DNA of 64,000 nt from Candidatus Woesearchaeota archaeon (lineage in GTDB: Archaea > Nanobdellota > Nanobdellia > Woesearchaeales > ARS49), in assembly GCA_038850615.1 (NCBI GenBank), contig JAWCLR010000003.1, positions 1,506 through 65,505 on the forward strand. The letters are read 5' to 3'. The first letter of the stretch is position 1; each line of letters starts with the position of its first letter. Below the pieces are notes generated by a model. It saw only the letters and a list, made by a program, of their open reading frames with translations. It was not told the origin of the DNA and searched no databases. Below are positions 881 through 47,045 of the stretch, piece by piece. The translations under genes and the position numbers were made by a program.

Positions 881-1291
881 ATGGTAAGAGTCTGGCTTGT
901 CCCGCCCGAATGCCTTGATGACCAGCGCCTGCTTGGCGAACACCTCGAAATCCACATAATCATCGGCGCAATCGCAAAAAGACATCAGGGAAAAAAAGGC
1001 GGGTGGGTAAATCATCCTGAAACAATAAGGTATGAAAACAGGGTAAAAGCGCTCATCAAAAGACACCAAAAACTGATTGAGGAAATGAAAAAGCGCGGCT
1101 GGAACGCAGGAAAAATCCACAAGACACCGCTTCCAACAAAAGGAATCCCAAAAAGCGCATTCAAGGACTTCAAGCCAACAAAACAAATGATTCTAAAGGA
1201 CATTTCTGACCTGAAAAAGCGCTGGAAAAAAGAAGGAAAGAAAGGCGGAAGAGTGCCTTTGAGTTCCTATAACGCCCCCGACGGACAATGA
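881..1291 (+). CDS. Pyrimidine-dimer DNA glycosylase (T4 endonuclease V / DenV-like)
   Basis: The N-terminus MVRVWLVPPECLDDQRLLGEHLEIHIIIGAI matches the phage T4 endoV pattern MTRINL..SEL.DQHL.AE.REL. Start placed at the internal ATG at 881 rather than the ORF-track start at 800. Confidence 0.7.
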   Translation: MVRVWLVPPECLDDQRLLGEHLEIHIIIGAIAKRHQGKKGGWVNHPETIRYENRVKALIKRHQKLIEEMKKRGWNAGKIHKTPLPTKGIPKSAFKDFKPTKQMILKDISDLKKRWKKEGKKGGRVPLSSYNAPDGQ

Positions 1292-1368
1292 AAATCCCGA
1301 TTCGCAAGCTCATCAGGAATTTTCAAACCCGCGTGTGCGTTCTCACTACGTTCGAACGCCCCCGACGG
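1271..1368 (-). repeat. 14-nt direct repeat of the tRNA-Glu(CTC) 3' end flanking a ~70-nt hairpin element
   Basis: AACGCCCCCGACGG occurs at 1271-1284 and at 1355-1368. Inverted repeat TGAAAATCCC (1289-1298) / GGAATTTTCA (1316-1325). The spacer is homologous to that at 39770-39827. Confidence 0.8.
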
Positions 1369-1429
1369 GATTTGAACCCGTGTCAAAGCCGCGAGAGGGC
1401 TTTATCCTTGGCCGCTAGACGACAGGGGC
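1357..1429 (-). tRNA. tRNA-Glu(CTC)
   Basis: 73-nt cloverleaf: acceptor GCCCCTG/CGGGGGC, anticodon stem AAGCC/GGCTT with loop CTCTCGC, T-arm CGGGTTCAAATCCCG. Confidence 0.9.
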
Positions 1430-4971: not shown

Positions 4972-5045
4972 TGGACCAGCCGAGATTTGAACTCGGAGCC
5001 TCACCGCTGCCAGCGGCGCGTTCTGCCGGATTGAACTACTGGCCC
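4972..5045 (-). tRNA. tRNA-Ala(GGC)
   Basis: GGGCCAG/CTGGTCC acceptor with G3:U70, anticodon loop CTGGCAG. Confidence 0.9.
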
Positions 5046-5048
5046 GAC

Positions 5049-5120
5049 TGGACCTGCCGGGAATTGAACCCGGCGCCTCACCCGTGCGAGGGGTGCGTTC
5101 TACCGATGAACTACAGGCCC
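5049..5120 (-). tRNA. tRNA-Ala(CGC)
   Basis: GGGCCTG/CAGGTCC acceptor with G3:U70, anticodon stem CACCC/GGGTG with loop CTCGCAC. Only 3 nt separate it from the previous tRNA. Confidence 0.9.
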
Positions 5121-5898: not shown

Positions 5899-6654
5899 TT
5901 AAACCTTTCTCGCAATCCAGAAAAACAAGACAATCCCCGCGATAAACATAGGGATATTAAGCGCTTGTCCAAGGGTCAGCGGTCCGACAAATGCGGTTGG
6001 CTCGCGGAAATACTCGGCTATGAAGCGGAACACTGAATAAAGCACAAGAAAGAGGGCAAGGAGCGAGCCGTTTGCCATCTTTTTATTCCTCAAGCATAGC
6101 AAGACAAAGAAGATAATCACGTCATAAGCAGCTTCGTACAACTGCGACGGGTGCCTGTAACCCTCTGCACCGGGAAACTTCACAGCCCACGGCACATTTG
6201 TAATCCTCCCAAAAAGCTCGCCGTTGATGAAATTGCCAATCCTTCCAAGCGCCTGTCCAAGGGCAATTGGAACAACACACACGTCGCAGAGGTTTAGGAA
6301 GCGGATTTTCCTGCGCCGCGCAAATAAGTACCCCGCAATAAGTCCGCCAAGAAGCCCGCCGTGAAAACTCAACCCGCCGTGCCATATCGCAATAATCTCG
6401 CCCGGATTGGCGAAATAATACGCCGGCTCCCATACCAAGACCTCAAGCAGGCGCGCGCCAATAATCACTCCCGCAACGAGCCACACCATCAGCCAGTCAA
6501 CATCATCCTGCGTCAGATTTATCATCCCTGTGCGCACAGAACGCCTCACATAAAAATAAACAAAAAGGAAGCTTAATGCCCACATCACGCCATACCATCT
6601 CACCTGCAACGGACCAAGCTCAATCAGGACGGGGTTAATCGCGTGCTCAAACAT
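5899..6654 (-). CDS. lgt: Prolipoprotein diacylglyceryl transferase (bacterial Lgt family)
   Basis: LGPLQVRWYGVMWALSF, HGGLSFHGGLLGG, GRIGNFINGELFG, HPSQLYEA; polytopic membrane protein of 251 aa. Confidence 0.85.
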   Translation of the reverse strand: MFEHAINPVLIELGPLQVRWYGVMWALSFLFVYFYVRRSVRTGMINLTQDDVDWLMVWLVAGVIIGARLLEVLVWEPAYYFANPGEIIAIWHGGLSFHGGLLGGLIAGYLFARRRKIRFLNLCDVCVVPIALGQALGRIGNFINGELFGRITNVPWAVKFPGAEGYRHPSQLYEAAYDVIIFFVLLCLRNKKMANGSLLALFLVLYSVFRFIAEYFREPTAFVGPLTLGQALNIPMFIAGIVLFFWIARKV

Positions 6655-39417: not shown

Positions 39418-39483
39418 TCAAAGCAAAGCATTCTAACACAACATAAGTCTCGAACTGGCGATAGACCAACCTCAGTTGGGCGT

Positions 39484-39512
39484 GTCGCCAGTTCGAATCT
39501 GGCCGGGCTCAT
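39484..39512 (+). repeat. Perfect 29-nt second copy of the tRNA-Val 3' end (T-arm plus acceptor 3' strand)
   Basis: GTCGCCAGTTCGAATCTGGCCGGGCTCAT occurs at 39390-39418 and at 39484-39512. The antisense 12-mer TCGAACTGGCGA at 39450-39461 lies between them. Confidence 0.85.
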
Positions 39513-39698
39513 GAGTTAAGCGAATGGGCACGGACAGGCTCGTCAACCGCAGTTGACCGCTGTCTGGTCGGGCTCGTGAAAACTTTCGGAATAAATGCTA
39601 TAAATTGGGCGGCTCTGCCACAGAGACCAACCATAAACGGGTTTTATAAGAAAACTTAAAAAGCAACCACTATCCAACGAGTGAGTATTATATAGTTC

Positions 39699-39769
39699 GC
39701 GCCTGTGGTTTAGTGGTAGAATACGACCTTGCCAAGGTTGAGACGCGGGTTCGATTCCCGCCAGGCGCA
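39699..39769 (+). tRNA. tRNA-Gly(GCC)
   Basis: GCGCCTG/CAGGCGC acceptor, anticodon stem CGACC/GGTTG with loop TTGCCAA, T-arm GCGGGTTCGATTCCCGC. Confidence 0.9.
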
Positions 39770-39840
39770 TCGGCGCACAGCGGACCTGAAAATCCCAGAC
39801 GAGCAATGCGAGTTGGAATTTTCATTACCTGCCAGGCGCA
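39770..39840 (+). repeat. Second copy of the hairpin element plus a repeat of the tRNA-Gly 3' end
   Basis: TGAAAATCCC (39787-39796) / GGAATTTTCA (39815-39824). GCCAGGCGCA occurs at 39760-39769 and 39831-39840 (13 nt with one mismatch). Confidence 0.8.
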
Positions 39841-39851
39841 CACATCTCTTT

Positions 39852-40283
39852 TTATTCCAATAATGCCTTCAACTTCCTGAACGCATCCTCCTGGGTATCC
39901 CACTCAAGCCGTTTTAGTGCATCATCAAACGAAACCCACTGAAAGTCGTCATGCTCCTTGCAGACATTAACATCAAGGCGCACTTTGGCATCAGGAGTGA
40001 CTTCAAAACAGAAAACGTGCTCTGTAATTGGATTTCCCTTATCAAGCCACGTGAATACATGCACGTTCTCAATAACCCTAATGACGCCCCTTTTTCCAAT
40101 TCCTGTTTCTTCAAGCATTTCACGATACGCTGCATCCTTGATTGAAGCATCGGTGCTTTCAACGCTTCCTGTTATCGGCTGCCAACTGCCACTCCCAATG
40201 CGCTTTAGCAGAAGAAACTCATATTCGTTGTTTTTCTTACGAAAAAGTATGCAGTTGACTTTGGTGTCCTTGCTCATAATCAA
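39852..40283 (-). CDS. NUDIX hydrolase
   Basis: NUDIX box GSVESTDASIKDAAYREMLEETGI. Confidence 0.8.
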   Translation of the reverse strand: MIMSKDTKVNCILFRKKNNEYEFLLLKRIGSGSWQPITGSVESTDASIKDAAYREMLEETGIGKRGVIRVIENVHVFTWLDKGNPITEHVFCFEVTPDAKVRLDVNVCKEHDDFQWVSFDDALKRLEWDTQEDAFRKLKALLE

Positions 40284-40345: not shown

Positions 40346-40457
40346 GGCCCTTTAGCTCAGTCCGGTAGAGCAACGGTCTTATATGACCGCTGACGGAACA
40401 AGAAGTCAATGGCTCTAAGAGCACCGTCGGTCGCCGGTTCAAATCCGGCAGGGGCCA
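40346..40457 (+). tRNA. tRNA-Ile(TAT) with a 38-nt intron at 37/38
   Basis: Acceptor GGCCCTT/AGGGGCC, D-arm GCTCAGTCCGGTAGAGC, anticodon stem ACGGT...ACCGT, loop CTTATA|intron|C, T-arm GCCGGTTCAAATCCGGC. The spliced length is 74 nt. Confidence 0.7.
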
Positions 40458-40513: not shown

Positions 40514-40607
40514 GCCCCTGTCGTCTAGTCCGGCCAAGGATAAGGGCCTTTCGTGCGGCAAAACGCAAGGAAAGCCTTTGACACGGGTTCAAATCCCGTC
40601 GGGGGCA
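40514..40607 (+). tRNA. tRNA-Glu(TTC) with a 19-nt intron at 37/38
   Basis: The body is near-identical to tRNA-Glu(CTC). Anticodon stem AGGGC...GCCTT, loop CTTTCG|intron|A. Confidence 0.85.
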
Positions 40608-40734
40608 TATGATTGTCCGCGAAGAATTGCTTGGCTACTACACCAAAAGCAAAGCAGAAATCCAAAAAGCAATTGCAAGATACCGCGAACTGAAGGCATT
40701 ATTTGAATAGTATAATGACAAGGAACTTCTTGAA

Positions 40735-41629: not shown

Positions 41630-41916
41630 ACCTACTAAATCCTAATTAGCATCAACGCCAAGCGCCGGTAAATCATTCCGGCAAGCTTTCTGTCCTCGGG
41701 AAAACTGAGGATGCCTACCAAAAACACGGTAGGAATGAGTGTCTCAGCTGAGCCTGAGGCATGATGGAGGGCAGCAATAGAACCCAAAAGCCAAATTCCA
41801 TTTTAGTCTGATGCGACCACAAATGTGGGAAGGGTTAACGACGAGGCTCCATTGATTCGTCAATGGTCATATCGTCTTGACATAACTTTCCTCAGGAGAA
41901 AACTCCGACATCACAG

Positions 41917-43382
<1,466 letters not shown>

Positions 43383-43471
43383 AATTTACTTTAAAGGACG
43401 GAGTCCATTGCTGCGAGCAACTTCGAAATTCCATCCGCAGACTCCGAGTGGAGCGAAGCGGAACGAGGTTG

Positions 43472-43496
43472 CCTGCGGATGGATCACCTCCTAATT
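43472..43496 (+). repeat. Perfect 25-nt duplicate of the 16S 3' terminus, including the anti-Shine-Dalgarno sequence
   Basis: CCTGCGGATGGATCACCTCCTAATT occurs at 43362-43386 and at 43472-43496. The antisense TCCATCCGCAG at 43430-43440 lies between them. Confidence 0.85.
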
Positions 43497-43606
43497 CGTT
43501 TACTCGTGTATTCGTACACGCGTTAACTCGGCTGAAGGTTTTGCTGCCCTCCTTTTTTGTTTTCACGGATCCGCTGAGTCGGGTCCTTGAAGAGTGCAAG
43601 ACTTCC

Positions 43607-43699
43607 GGGCCCGTAGCTCAACGGTAGAGCACCTGCCTTGCAGGAAACAAATGTTTCCAGGAGCGCGGGAGGCTTCGGGTTCAAATCCCGACGGGTCCA
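43607..43699 (+). tRNA. tRNA-Ala(TGC) with a 21-nt intron, in the 16S-23S spacer
   Basis: GGGCCCG/CGGGTCC acceptor with G3:U70, anticodon stem CCTGC...GCGGG, loop CTTGCA|intron|C. Confidence 0.85.
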
Positions 43700-43924
43700 T
43701 CCATCCGAGTATCACATTCATCATTTCATTCGATGAACGCAAATCGCGATTCTAACTAATCGCGGTTGAAGGGCAATAGGCTGTAGGAGCGCATAATGCA
43801 AGACGTAAGACGCACGACGCATAAAAAAAGCGGCCGGCGTCAAGCGCAAGGCGTCCTGCGCGCCCAATAACCACACCTACTACATGCTAATGACGGCCGT
43901 GCAAAGATTGAGATCATATCTGGT

Positions 43925-46835
43925 CCTACACTACCCTAACAGGTGGAAGACTTGGTTCGAGACGCCGATGAAGGACGCGGCTAACGGCGAAATGCCCCGG
44001 CGACGTGTATGCAACGGTTGAACCGGGGATATCCGAATGGGACTTCCTCTTGAGCACGAAAGTGCGGGGAACGCGGGGAATTGAAACGTCTTAGTACCCG
44101 CAGGAAAAGAAATCAATCGAGATGCGCTGAGTAAGAGCGACTGAAAAGCGCATAGGGCAAACCGAACGAGGGAATGAAAGTTCTCTCGAATGTGGTGTTT
44201 GGACCCGTGCCAATACCTCGCTGGGAAACGCAAAGTCGCCTGGAACGGCGCGCGACACAGGGTGACAGCCCCGTAGCGGCACCTCAGCAGGTTACGAGCA
44301 TGGAGTTCCAGAGTACTGTTCCTCGGAAATGGAGCAGGAATACGGGGGGCATCAACCTCCAACCCTAAATACGTCTCGAGTCCGATAGCATACAAGTACC
44401 GTGAGGGAACGTTGAAAAGAACCCCTGACCGGGAGTTCAAAGATCCTGAAACCTGTTAGGTATGGATCGCTAGGGCACCACGGTGTTCTAGCGTTCGTTT
44501 AGAATAACGAGCCGGGGAGTGCATCTCAGTGGCAAGGCTAACCTTTATCAGGGAAGCCGAAGCGAAAGCAACAAGCCCGCAGGCAACGAGGGGCGGGGTG
44601 CTAATCCGCCTGGAGTCACTGGGATTCGACCCGAAACCGCTCGATCTTATCCTGAGTAAGGTGAAGTGCGGGTAAAACCGTGCGGAGGCCTGAAGAGGTT
44701 CTATGAGCAAGTGTTCTTCTAACTTGGGATAAGGGGTGAAAAGCCAATCGAGAGCGGTGATAGCTGGTTCCTATCGAAGTAGGCGTCAGTCTAACCTGGG
44801 ACGAGCTGACAGGTGCTGTAGAGCGACGGATTGGGGGTTAAGGCATCGAAAGGTGTCGACCCTCTGTCCAACTCCGAAAGTGCCTGTAGCGTAGACTCCC
44901 GGAGACGGGGTGTCGGCGTAAGGTTGACATCCGAGAGGGGAACAACCCTGACGCTGGTTAAGGTCCCAAAAGACGCATTAAGTGTGAACGGGCATAAGGG
45001 TATCTGCGTCCAGAGACAGCGGGGAGGTTGGCTTAGAAGCAGCCATCCTTTAAAAAGTGCGTAACAGCTTACCCGTCAAGGATGCGGGTCCCTAAAATGG
45101 ACGGGGCTAAATGCGTTACCGATACCAGCGACGCCCCAAAAGGGCGGAGTAGGTAGGCGTACTGCGTGGGCAGAAGCTTCTCCGTAAGGAGGGGTGGACC
45201 GCGTAGTAATGAAAATCCCGGCAGTAGTAGGATCGTAGCAGCGTGAGAATCGCTGCCACCGAAAGGGCAAGGGTTCCTTGGCACTGTCGATCAGCCAAGG
45301 GTCAGTTGGTCCTAACAGAGCTCCCAACAGGAGCCGATGTGGAAAGGGAAACCGGTTAATATTCCGGTACTGTCTGTGTATGCGTGGCAACACAAGCCTC
45401 GTGTCAGACGCTTTTGGCTAGATGGGCGCAGACCGTCGTCTGCGTTAACCCGGATACGCCGCGGGAGTATCATCATGATGAGAACGCGGGGAAACCGGGG
45501 AACAGCATTCCTTTGGAGTGTCCTGTCAATGCCTGGAGCCCATGAAAATGGCACAGGGAAAAATCACAGGCATCCGTACCCAGAACCAGCACTGGTGCCC
45601 CTAGGTGAGAAGCCTAAGGTGTGAAGGACGAACCTAGACAAGGGAACTCGGCAAATTGGTCCCGTAACTTCGGTTTAAGGGATTCCTGCTCCTGTGCGCA
45701 CATGCGTGGTGGGAGCAGGGCGCAGTGACTCGGGGGTCCCGACTGTTTAACAAAAACACAACTGGTTGCAAAGCCGTAAGGCCGTGTACAACCGGTGACG
45801 TCTGCCCAGTGTCGGTATCCGAATCTCGTTTTCAAGCGGGCTAAGGACCGATTAACGGCGGGAGTAACTATAACTCTCTTAAGGTAGCGTAATGCCTTGT
45901 CGTTTGATTGGCGACGTGCATGAAGGGCGTAACGAGGTCCCCACTGTCCCTGTCTGGGAGCCTCCGAATAAATCCTTCTGGTGCAGAGACCAGAGATCTC
46001 CAGTGGGAAGCGAAGACCCCGTGAAACTTTACTGTAGCTTGTCGTTGCGGCGTGAGCTGCGTTGTATAGGGTATGTGGGAGCTGCTTGAGCCCAGTGCCG
46101 TCAGGCGCTGGGTGAGGCGACGATGTAACACCACACTCCGCGACTTGCGTTGCTTACCTTCCGAAAGGAAGGGACACCGGCTGGCGGACAGTTCGGCTGG
46201 GGTGGCACGCAGTTGAAAGGATATCAATTGCGACCAAAGGTCTGCTCAACCCGGTCAGAAATCGGGTGTAGAGTTTAAGGGCAAAAGCAGGCCTGATGGG
46301 ATACTTAATAAGATTGTATCCCAAGGCGAAAGCCTGGCCTAGCGAACCTCAATGTCCTTCTTGATGAGGGCTTGGGATGACCGAAAAGTTACTCCGGGGG
46401 TAACAGAGTCGTCGCGCCTGAGAGTTCACATCGACGGCGCGGCTTGCTACATCGACGTCGGCTCTTCCTATCCTGGGCGTGCAGAAGCGTCCAAGGGTGC
46501 GGGAGTTCACCGTTTAAAAGGGATCGTTAGCTGGGTTCACAACGCTGTGAGGCAGTTGGTTTGATATCTACTGGAGATGCGAGATGTCTGAGGGGAAGGA
46601 AGCTCTAGTACGAGAGGAACGAGCTTTCGGCGCCACTAGTGTACCGGTTATCCGATAGGGTATCACGCCGGGCAGCTACGCGCTGAGGGATAAGTTCTGA
46701 AAGCATCTAAGAATGAAACCCTCCTCGAAAAGAGACATCATAGTGCACGGATACAACATCCGTTTGATGGAAGCGGGGTGTACGCGCGAAGGTAACGACG
46801 CGCTCAGCCTGCGCTCCCCAACGCACATACTTGGA
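43925..46835 (+). rRNA. 23S rRNA (archaeal); ends approximate (about +/-15 nt)
   Basis: 5' ...AGGTGGAAGACTTGGTTCGAGACGCCGATGAAGGACGCGG; internal GGATAACAGAG-like and ...CTGAAAGCATCTAAG... blocks. The flanks ATCTGGTCC (43913-43921) and GGATTAGAT (46833-46841) can pair as a processing stem. Confidence 0.85.
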
Positions 46836-47045
46836 TTAGATGCGATTTCAGTCTTTGCATGGCCATCATTTTTCCTTTTTTTCTTAATTCATTGACTATG
46901 CAGATCCGGAAGTTTCGCAATTCTTCCGCAAAACAATCTATTTTCAGGAATTCTTCCGGCTTAAATGCAAATGTGTTTGGTCAAACCGCAATCGTCACAA
47001 GATTTTCACCAAAATTCACTTTAAGACTGTTGTCTTTTTTTTGCA

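Follow-up and report, generated by a model that had tools for sequence, protein, structure and literature searches.

A hairpin element downstream of tRNA-Gly and tRNA-Glu

The window analysed here (the whole 64-kb stretch of DNA) is a segment of an archaeal chromosome (Woesearchaeota, DPANN) that carries an rRNA operon (41916–46840), intron-bearing tRNA genes and housekeeping genes. Its tRNA-Gly(GCC) gene is followed by an imperfect hairpin, designated HP, and then by a second copy of the last 13 nucleotides (nt) of the tRNA, and the same hairpin with its own flanking repeats recurs behind tRNA-Glu(CTC) (Table 1). The initial annotation had located both features and their tRNA-specific repeats correctly; the repeats CCCGCCAGGCGCA and CCTGCCAGGCGCA at tRNA-Gly agree at 12/13 positions and the 14-nt repeat at tRNA-Glu is exact. 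It had also taken the tRNA-Gly feature for a second copy of the tRNA-Glu element, which is borne out by the alignment of the two interiors and by scores of 61.1 bits (E = 1.1e-12) and 64.6 bits, respectively, against R1, a covariance model built on 14 hairpin copies (2 from the window and 12 from elsewhere). Our preferred reading, to which we assign a probability of about 0.5, is that the tRNA-Gly feature is one copy of a small hairpin element of Woesearchaeota, an insertion that is strand-specific and non-autonomous. It has the look of selfish DNA of an undescribed kind rather than of a working RNA.

The pairing of the tRNA-Gly hairpin is interrupted by a single C.A mismatch and a bulged A and includes one G.U pair; its inverted-repeat arms lie at 39787–39797 and 39814–39824. 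The tRNA-Gly element folds better than shuffled sequences (z = -2.6); the tRNA-Glu element folds no better than shuffles (z = -0.9). Since T-runs also sit 3′ of the distal tRNA-end copy at other loci, the T5 run beyond the tRNA-Gly element is likely to be the native terminator of this gene. A consensus terminator scan returned nothing at either window copy.

The two copies lie on opposite strands, 38 kb apart, each 3′ of its own tRNA and with no skew switch in between. A search of the full 64-kb window with R1 revealed no copy beyond these two, the opposite strand scoring ~12 bits, and separate hairpin half-sites, the possible ends of a longer parent, were absent from the window. The short tip pattern (10 nt) is not enriched by itself (7 matches in the window vs 3.8 expected), so significance rests on the whole hairpin together with the repeats.

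Table 1. Positions of the hairpin elements, tRNA genes and duplicated tRNA ends in the window
Feature	Position	Strand	Remarks
tRNA-Gly(GCC)	39699–39769	+	Complete without the element; ARAGORN, Rfam tRNA 70.9 bits
Direct repeat copy 1, CCCGCCAGGCGCA	39757–39769	+	Final 13 nt of tRNA-Gly; repeat family D2
Spacer TCGGCGCACAGCGGACC, 17 nt	39770–39786	+	Degenerate homologue of the mini tandem-GA hairpin of relatives; alignment with L036 and L041 trailers
HP hairpin TGAAAATCCC-A-GAC-GA-GC-AAT-GC-GA-GTT-GGAATTTTCA, 38 nt	39787–39824	+	Inverted repeat I3, fold, R1
Tip GAGCAATGCGA	39801–39811	+	Facing GA dinucleotides across a 2-bp GC/GC stem, AAT loop
Tail TTA	39825–39827	+	Family consensus WTTRY, 3–5 nt (alignment)
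Direct repeat copy 2, CCTGCCAGGCGCA	39828–39840	+	T-stem 3′ strand, acceptor 3′ strand and discriminator; one mismatch
T5 run	39849–39853	+	Likely native tRNA-Gly terminator, moved downstream by the insertion
tRNA-Glu(CTC)	1357–1429	-	tRNA scans
Direct repeat copy 1, CCGTCGGGGGCGTT	1355–1368	-	Final 12 nt of tRNA-Glu and the following 2 nt
Mini tandem-GA hairpin TTC-GA-AC-GTA-GT-GA-GAA	1340–1356	-	Intact; immediately 3′ of the discriminator base; overlooked by the initial annotation
CGCACACGCGGG, degenerate inverted copy of the tRNA-Glu 3′ end	1328–1339	-	Read by hand
HP hairpin, Glu copy, TGAAAATTCC-T-GAT-GA-GC-TT-GC-GA-ATC-GGGATTTTCA	1289–1325	-	R1, E = 1.4e-13
Tail TTGT	1285–1288	-	Precedes repeat copy 2
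Direct repeat copy 2, CCGTCGGGGGCGTT	1271–1284	-	Exact 14-nt match to copy 1
Younger tRNA-Val trailer unit	39418–39512	+	Repeats D1, I1 and I2
Older tRNA-Val trailer unit	39510–39581	+	Repeats D3 and D4; orthologous unit in L036

Distribution of the hairpin

A scan of 185,579 species genomes returned the hairpin pattern in two genomes, both Woesearchaeota. Scanning of metagenome contigs gave 19 stretches, 10 with a matching 5′ arm (one of them repeating a genome match) and 9 attributable to chance. The two scans together yielded 11 distinct true loci, every one oriented like the upstream gene, in keeping with the conserved interior and the fixed orientation to the tRNA that the initial annotation had described for the two window copies. 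Relatives of the window contributed three further hairpin copies, and all relatives that carry an organism name are Candidatus Woesearchaeota or Nanoarchaeota, i.e. DPANN archaea. The hairpin was found 3′ of at least eight different tRNA genes, always in the tRNA sense, and tandem arrays of three or four hairpins occur behind tRNAs at L025 and L028 (loci outside the window are given L numbers). At the latter locus, the apical loop of one hairpin (L028b, 6359–6440) contains an insert of 53 nt, placed between GC and GC; no other copy hints at a longer form. The three-hairpin array is adjoined by a gene encoding an OapC domain (PF09845; L028, 6514–6909, minus strand), which may be coincidence; bacterial OapC is reported to recognize a kink-turn (K-turn) in OLE RNA (PMC9723947).

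An identical 60-nt two-hairpin unit lies within the T-loop (~position 59/60) of two different tRNAs (L015, 11–58; L021, 836–883, minus strand). In both, a small intron-like bulge-helix-bulge motif directly precedes the unit, and its central helix covaries (UUCG/CGAA vs UUCA/UGAA). A unit of the same length also occurs within a protein gene: at L018 (149–196), 60 nt (20 codons) stand in frame in the linker of methionyl-tRNA synthetase (MetRS), before the tRNA-binding domain PF01588. The MetRS homologues P0004 and P0002 lack the unit, and the P0004 DNA runs straight through, with GCCAAACTT joined to AACCT. The MetRS copy is flanked by ACTY on either side, a duplication of at most 4 nt, and the chance of a 20-codon open frame without selection is ~38 %. 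When the hairpin was translated in five frames and searched against proteins, no other in-frame insertion was detected at E ≤ 10.

Rfam searches, whether at the gathering threshold or at permissive ones, yielded nothing but tRNAs and chance-level matches, and no family fits. Two scans of IMG/VR viral contigs gave 9 matches without the 5′ arm (chance) and then 0, and hence no copy. Six loci from two related samples carry, at six different sites, the same uncompensated G.G mismatch (AATCGC/GGGATT), indicating that these copies have probably spread recently.

Structure of the hairpin and its tandem-GA tip

The copies share the consensus GAAAAT-NCC-(A)-GAY-GA-(1–2 bp)-loop-(1–2 bp)-GA-RUC-GGN-ATTTTC. 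The covariance model and the compensatory stem changes by which the initial annotation had proposed to judge the hairpin come out in its favour, as 96 % of the stem cells in the copy alignment pair and four pairs are altered on both sides; with the partner slid by 1–3 columns as a control, pairing falls to 36–52 %. We also compared 27 tandem-GA modules, 18 of which were found without a search pattern requiring GA. Over all 27, 130/133 stem cells are paired and G.U exceeds A.C by 9 to 1, an imbalance showing that the constrained form is a folded single strand of tRNA sense, whether of RNA or of DNA. R1 is likewise strongly strand-specific, scoring 61–72 bits on one strand and 12–18 bits on the other.

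In both window copies, and in 22/27 modules overall, the tip shows two facing GA, each set in a Y-GA-R context, and its sequence permits tandem sheared G.A/A.G pairs. The 6–8 nt between the two GA could be taken for a loop, but they contain a covarying stem of 1–2 bp (GC/GC in 18 modules, AC/GU in 3, and GU/AC, CC/GG and C/G). The conserved GA tip proposed in the initial annotation holds for most modules; however, one GA is lost in 5/18 of those found without bias (both intact in 13/18), including both tRNA-Gly orthologues, and much of the apparent invariance stems from search patterns that demanded GA.

The further suggestion of a K-loop-like tip that L7Ae may bind finds no support in the anatomy or among the orthologues. 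In a K-turn, canonical and non-canonical stems are separated by a 3-nt bulge that directly precedes the G.A pairs on their 5′ side (PMC1874613), and in a kink-loop (K-loop), which L7Ae accepts, unpaired loop nucleotides take the place of stem I (PMC1865073). The HP tip resembles these L7Ae-bound motifs in its facing GA dinucleotides, their Y-GA-R context and the short apical structure that adjoins them. It differs in that there is no 3-nt bulge: the sole bulge is a single A, three base pairs (bp) away from the G.A pairs and missing from four copies, and the G.A pairs are abutted by the GAY/RUC pairs on one side and the 2-bp stem on the other. The 2 bp above the G.A pairs covary, which points to a helical apex rather than an open loop, and the GA is not kept in orthologues. 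A canonical K-turn was therefore ruled out, given the missing bulge and helices that run on past the G.A pairs on both sides.

Two other RNA motifs were considered and rejected. UGAUGA, as in box C/D small RNAs, occurs in the Glu copy only (AGACGA in the Gly copy), and the best C/D-box match reached 17 bits vs a gathering score of 40 (E = 0.39). CUGAUGA, as in hammerhead ribozymes, is likewise confined to the Glu copy, with no stem I, no GAAA and no Rfam match.

Unit architecture and duplication of tRNA ends

In its fuller form the unit consists of the tRNA end (Y), a mini tandem-GA hairpin, an inverted Y, a central hairpin, 3–5 nt and a direct Y, followed by the native trailer. Examples are found at the spacer tRNAs of L037 and L036, at tRNA-Gly of L036, at tRNA-Glu of L040 and at tRNA-Glu of the window, and at least four unrelated central hairpins share this architecture. 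At the spacer tRNAs of L037 and L036 and at tRNA-Glu of L040, the first base of the inverted copy is precisely the complement of the discriminator. Behind the window tRNA-Glu it also opens with this complement and, extended by one base (CGCACACGCGGGT), matches the reverse complement at 9/13 positions; cleaner inverted copies are present in L037, L040 and L039. For the window tRNA-Gly trailer, alignment with L036 shows that the inverted tRNA-end copy and most of the mini hairpin have been deleted.

To count duplicated ends we matched the last 11 nt of each of 38 tRNA genes (window and L036–L041), with at most 2 mismatches and within 200 nt downstream. A copy of the gene's own end was detected downstream of 13/38 tRNA genes vs 3 in the upstream control, and one of the 13 is a neighbouring paralogue. 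In the window, the tRNA-Ala genes CGC and GGC lie in tandem only 3 nt apart (4972–5120, minus strand), and the second gives the first a false downstream-copy signal. The duplication mostly comprises 12–16 nt starting directly after the T-loop, with other cases of 10, 17–21 and 27–33 nt; the direct repeats of the tRNA 3′ part in the window are 13 nt (Gly), 14 nt (Glu) and 29 nt (Val) long. The hairpin lies 17–47 nt from the left border and 3–5 nt from the right border. The left end, TTCGAAC.. or TCGGCG.., does not reverse-complement to the right end (..TTTTCATTGT). In L001, L019 and L028c, the spacer is significantly complementary to the distal repeat.

The two units behind tRNA-Val are nested and have the same architecture as the HP units, with a different hairpin family. 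The younger comprises a 32-nt spacer, a perfect 12-nt inverted copy (TCGAACTGGCGA, 39450–39461), the hairpin ACCAAC-CTC-AGTTGG and, at 39484–39512, the tRNA-Val 3′ end repeated without mismatch over 29 nt. The older starts with a mini hairpin (CAT-GA-GT-TAA-GC-GA-ATG, 39510–39526), continues with the hairpin GTCAAC-CGCA-GTTGAC and ends with a degenerate third tRNA-end copy (39563–39581). It is this mini hairpin that the initial annotation had recorded as a weaker relative of the element; the similarity is real, but the module is a different one. The younger unit is also present behind tRNA-Val of L039, where its inverted (12-nt) and direct (29–33-nt) copies fit that locus's own, differing tRNA.

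A related arrangement was seen behind one intron-bearing tRNA in L039 (8417–8516) and L040 (8615–8739), where the whole T-arm and the acceptor 3′ strand are repeated within 100 nt 3′ of the gene. The T-loop of this second T-arm is broken after TTCA by a 56-nt double hairpin, so that it resembles an intron-bearing pseudo 3′ half.

Filled, empty and decaying orthologous sites

We compared seven syntenic loci of relatives, obtained through orthologues (80–95 % identity) of the ScpA gene that adjoins tRNA-Val. Behind tRNA-Val, a T-run follows directly in L035 and L037 (empty), one unit is present in L036 and two are present in the window. The tRNA-Ala of the rRNA spacer is followed by a full hairpin unit in L036 and is bare in the window, with the same sequence downstream, and the tRNA-Glu site is filled in L040, by a further hairpin type, and empty in L041. 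Occupancy of the same site in some genomes and not in others means insertion. The tRNA-Gly hairpin is common to the window, L036 and L041; its tip reads AA..GA in L036 and GA..AA in L041, and the distal tRNA-Gly copy of L036 retains the ancestral CAGGCGCA while the acceptor of the tRNA itself now reads TGGGCGCA. These sequence comparisons show the hairpin unit to be an insertion that belongs to a dispersed family and whose old copies decay. The tRNA-Gly copy itself has the pattern of an old, drifting insertion rather than that of a conserved functional RNA. The initial annotation had favoured an RNA-level function over a DNA scar for this copy; the filled and empty sites, the decay of the tRNA ends and the MetRS copy instead indicate insertion.

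The mini hairpin presents a different picture. It occurs at the orthologous tRNA-Gly site in L036, L038 and L039, where GU/AC and GC/GC form the inner stems, and also follows the rRNA-spacer tRNA in L037; its stems covary among L036–L039, and in L039 a T6 run stands immediately 3′ of the tRNA-Gly mini hairpin. An RNA role is possible for the mini hairpin directly 3′ of the tRNA in several lineages.

One candidate remnant in the window was discarded. Near 40615, the sequence ATTGTCCG behind tRNA-Glu(TTC) forms the beginning of a short conserved open reading frame (ORF) at 40609–40720, 3 nt 3′ of the tRNA, which begins ATGATTGTCCGCGAAGAA in the window and ATGGTCATCCGAGAAGAA in L036; the likeness of its first bases to the tail and repeat of the Glu element is coincidental. 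Three window tRNAs contain introns (40346–40457, 40514–40607 and 43607–43699), one of them within the 16S–23S spacer; two are misread by ARAGORN (as unidentified with a 4-nt anticodon and as Ser), and all three score as tRNA in Rfam. In L039 the 23S rRNA gene extends over ~3.6 kb and holds a LAGLIDADG-type ORF (L039, 1324–1629), and thus carries an rRNA intron that is missing from the window 23S gene. An exact-protein look-up of the neighbouring NUDIX protein returned its own sequence only.

A possible mechanism and comparison with known mobile elements

On our preferred reading, the element lands at the 3′ end of a tRNA gene, where the T-loop meets the 3′ strand of the T-stem. A second copy of the last 10–16 nt of the tRNA (sometimes 27–33) is thereby placed beyond the element, leaving the tRNA intact and displacing the T-run. 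By analogy with IS200/IS605 ends, repetitive extragenic palindromes (REPs) with their REP-associated tyrosine transposases (RAYTs) and integron attC sites, the conserved irregularities (facing GA in Y-GA-R context, bulged A) may be recognized by a putative enzyme on folded single-stranded DNA. The inverted target copy at the foot of the hairpin may help to choose or copy the target, and new insertions would adjoin the tRNA, with older units pushed outward.

A more specific version, which we consider speculative and rather unlikely, is a target-guided single-strand mobile element, in which the inverted 9–13-nt tRNA copy at the foot of the tandem-GA hairpin would be a DNA guide, longer than its 4-nt counterpart in IS608. 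There, a short guide 5′ of the hairpin foot base-pairs with the cleavage site and the target (PMC3201880), and this guide resembles the inverted tRNA-end copy described here. The guide would select the tRNA 3′ end as integration site and set the cleavage site at the right end of the element, which would account for the constant match of both the inverted and the direct copy to the host tRNA even where the tRNAs differ, as with tRNA-Val of the window and of L039. In a variant, the trailer may fold into a minihelix resembling an acceptor stem and be cut out as RNA by tRNA-processing enzymes.

Among described systems, IS200/IS605 ends, palindrome-associated transposable elements (PATEs) and REP/RAYT systems are alike in that they are imperfect, short hairpins, specific to one strand, in which irregular bases are conserved and terminal inverted repeats are lacking; IS200/IS605-related sequences and REPs also share non-autonomous copies scattered between genes, often in tandem arrays. 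They differ in several respects. IS200/IS605 elements do not duplicate their targets, which are 4–5 nt long, whereas here 10–33 nt are found twice at tRNA sites and the ‘guide’ would be 9–13 nt. Only the MetRS copy fits the no-duplication rule, and no Y1/HUH gene was found among the ORFs tested (30 in the window and 10 at other loci). The conserved 5′ GTAG-type tetranucleotide of REPs is not seen here, and the IS200/IS605 and REP systems are bacterial or part of larger archaeal IS elements.

Casposons offer another parallel. The casposase of A. boonei needs an 18-bp segment of the tRNA-Pro T-loop and duplicates the adjacent 15 bp, and both oligonucleotide duplexes and mini-casposons integrate at this tRNA-Pro site (PMC5137440). 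Likewise, most duplications here are 12–16 bp long and begin directly after the T-loop, and new units stack beside the tRNA as spacers do beside a CRISPR leader. However, the segment duplicated in A. boonei overlaps the tRNA by 5 bp only, and casposon target duplications measure 14–15 bp, whereas here their length ranges from 10 to 33 nt and an inverted target copy is present. Nor were the terminal inverted repeats and the cas1 gene of casposons found here (cas1 was sought in the tested ORFs of the window and loci). Attachment-site duplications of archaeal integrases similarly use the tRNA 3′ end as flanking direct repeat and keep the tRNA intact; they differ from the present units, in which the insert is 58–88 nt, there is no integrase and the hairpin stands at a fixed distance from the distal repeat.

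Rickettsia palindromic elements, among others, are small palindromes inserted in frame. The present element is comparable as a small palindromic repeat found between genes and, in L018, in frame within a conserved protein gene, but there is one in-frame case only and the sequences are unrelated. A classical miniature inverted-repeat transposable element (MITE) was rejected because of the lack of terminal inverted repeats and the unfixed length of the duplication. No description of such units was found in a narrow literature search, and the element would appear to be a variant of the small palindromic insertion elements that, within that search, had not been described previously.

Several observations weigh against an insertion element. 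The duplication is not of fixed length (10–33 nt), and terminal inverted repeats are lacking. Genes for a transposase, integrase, Cas1 or HUH protein were found neither near any copy nor among the 30 window ORFs tested, no longer parent element was seen apart from the loop insert of L028b, and no known transposition chemistry fits cleanly. The inverted copy is weak in the window itself: pairing of the tRNA-Gly spacer with the downstream repeat is not significant alone (p = 0.12), and behind tRNA-Glu the best inverted 11-mer has 4 mismatches (pairing test p = 0.16, not significant). No splice route was found for the T-loop units of L015 and L021. Finally, the mini hairpin behind tRNA-Gly has been kept in five lineages with compensatory changes, which looks like selection for a host function.

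Alternative explanations

The last point leads to the strongest competitor, which we regard as possible though clearly less probable than insertion. Here the tandem-GA hairpins are working RNA in the tRNA 3′ trailer, either binding a protein (L7Ae in K-loop-like fashion, or another) or acting with a T-run in termination or protection, and the tRNA-end copies are side products. The invariable tRNA sense of the hairpin and a layout suited to co-transcription fit this, as do the preponderance of G.U over A.C and covariation in both stems. So does the position of the mini hairpin directly 3′ of the discriminator, kept at tRNA-Gly in three relatives and followed in one by the T6 run. At L013, L025 and L028, hairpins and T-runs stand behind tRNAs without any tRNA-end copy, and L7Ae tolerates K-loops whose loop nucleotides stand in place of stem I (PMC1865073). 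The tip, however, has a covarying 2-bp helix at its apex and no 3-nt bulge, and has lost one GA in 5/18 unbiased modules, those of both tRNA-Gly orthologues included. The sites empty in close relatives imply that the element is dispensable, one copy stands inside the MetRS reading frame, no Rfam family matches and the terminator scan was blank at the window copies.

Less probable again is an origin without any enzyme, through serial fold-back template switching at quasi-palindromes of the trailer, followed by spread through gene conversion via the near-identical T-arms. If each hairpin extended its stem by copying its own 5′ flank, two successive fold-backs would predict the observed positions of the inverted and then the direct copy. 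This would also account for one architecture shared by unrelated central hairpins, for L038, where the mini hairpin and the inverted copy stand alone, the second step being absent, for the T-loop-like 3′ arm and tail of the hairpin (TTCATTA vs TTCGATT) and for the want of an enzyme gene near any copy. Template switching cannot, however, generate the same 38-nt hairpin behind unrelated tRNAs or in MetRS, which has no T-arm homology. The perfect tRNA-Val copies of 29–33 nt exceed the 12-nt inverted template, and the younger Val unit carries 32 nt of unrelated spacer.

We consider it very unlikely that the units are scars of integrase-type plasmids or viruses, in which attL, a remnant and attR were left after deletion of the body. 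Direct repeats of the tRNA 3′ end that start in or beside the T-arm, imperfect similarity just to the left of the identity block, as in a flank derived from attP, and the outward stacking of events at tRNA-Val would all be expected of such scars. Random deletions, on the other hand, would not leave 58–88 nt between the repeats in all of more than 12 cases, nor a hairpin that is always intact and always 3–5 nt from the distal repeat. Neither an integrase nor fragments of one occur in the 30 window and 10 locus ORFs, IMG/VR holds no copy and the MetRS copy duplicates at most 4 nt.

The weakest candidate, which we largely dismiss, is a non-canonical tRNA intron of the bulge-helix-bulge type with the distal copy as the true 3′ exon: in L015 and L021 the complete tRNA 3′ end is found only downstream of the unit, beside the covarying motif, and this group has true T-loop introns (L025, L028), but both window tRNAs are complete upstream of the element (55–71 bits unspliced), none of the bulge-helix-bulge motifs, with 3-nt bulges on either side of a 4-bp helix, that were enumerated in Gly, Glu, L015 and L021 removes the element, the L015/L021 motif would leave the unit in place and use of the distal copy would give a T-loop without A58.

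Implications

Little is known of the mobile DNA of DPANN archaea, whose genomes are tiny. In this clade, about one-third of the sampled tRNA genes are followed by a small structured insertion with direct and inverted duplicates of the tRNA end, for which no known scheme of transposition or integration fully accounts. In practical terms, such hairpins and pseudo 3′ ends can misdirect the annotation of tRNAs, the calling of introns and the prediction of attachment sites in metagenome-assembled genomes. If the process is enzyme-free, these trailers would be a clear natural case of palindrome growth through fold-back template switching. If it is enzyme-driven, the units would point to a new rule for the selection of tRNA genes as targets, possibly by base pairing with the target, and would bear on the old idea that archaeal tRNA genes have been shaped by, and defend themselves against, elements that integrate in their 3′ halves.

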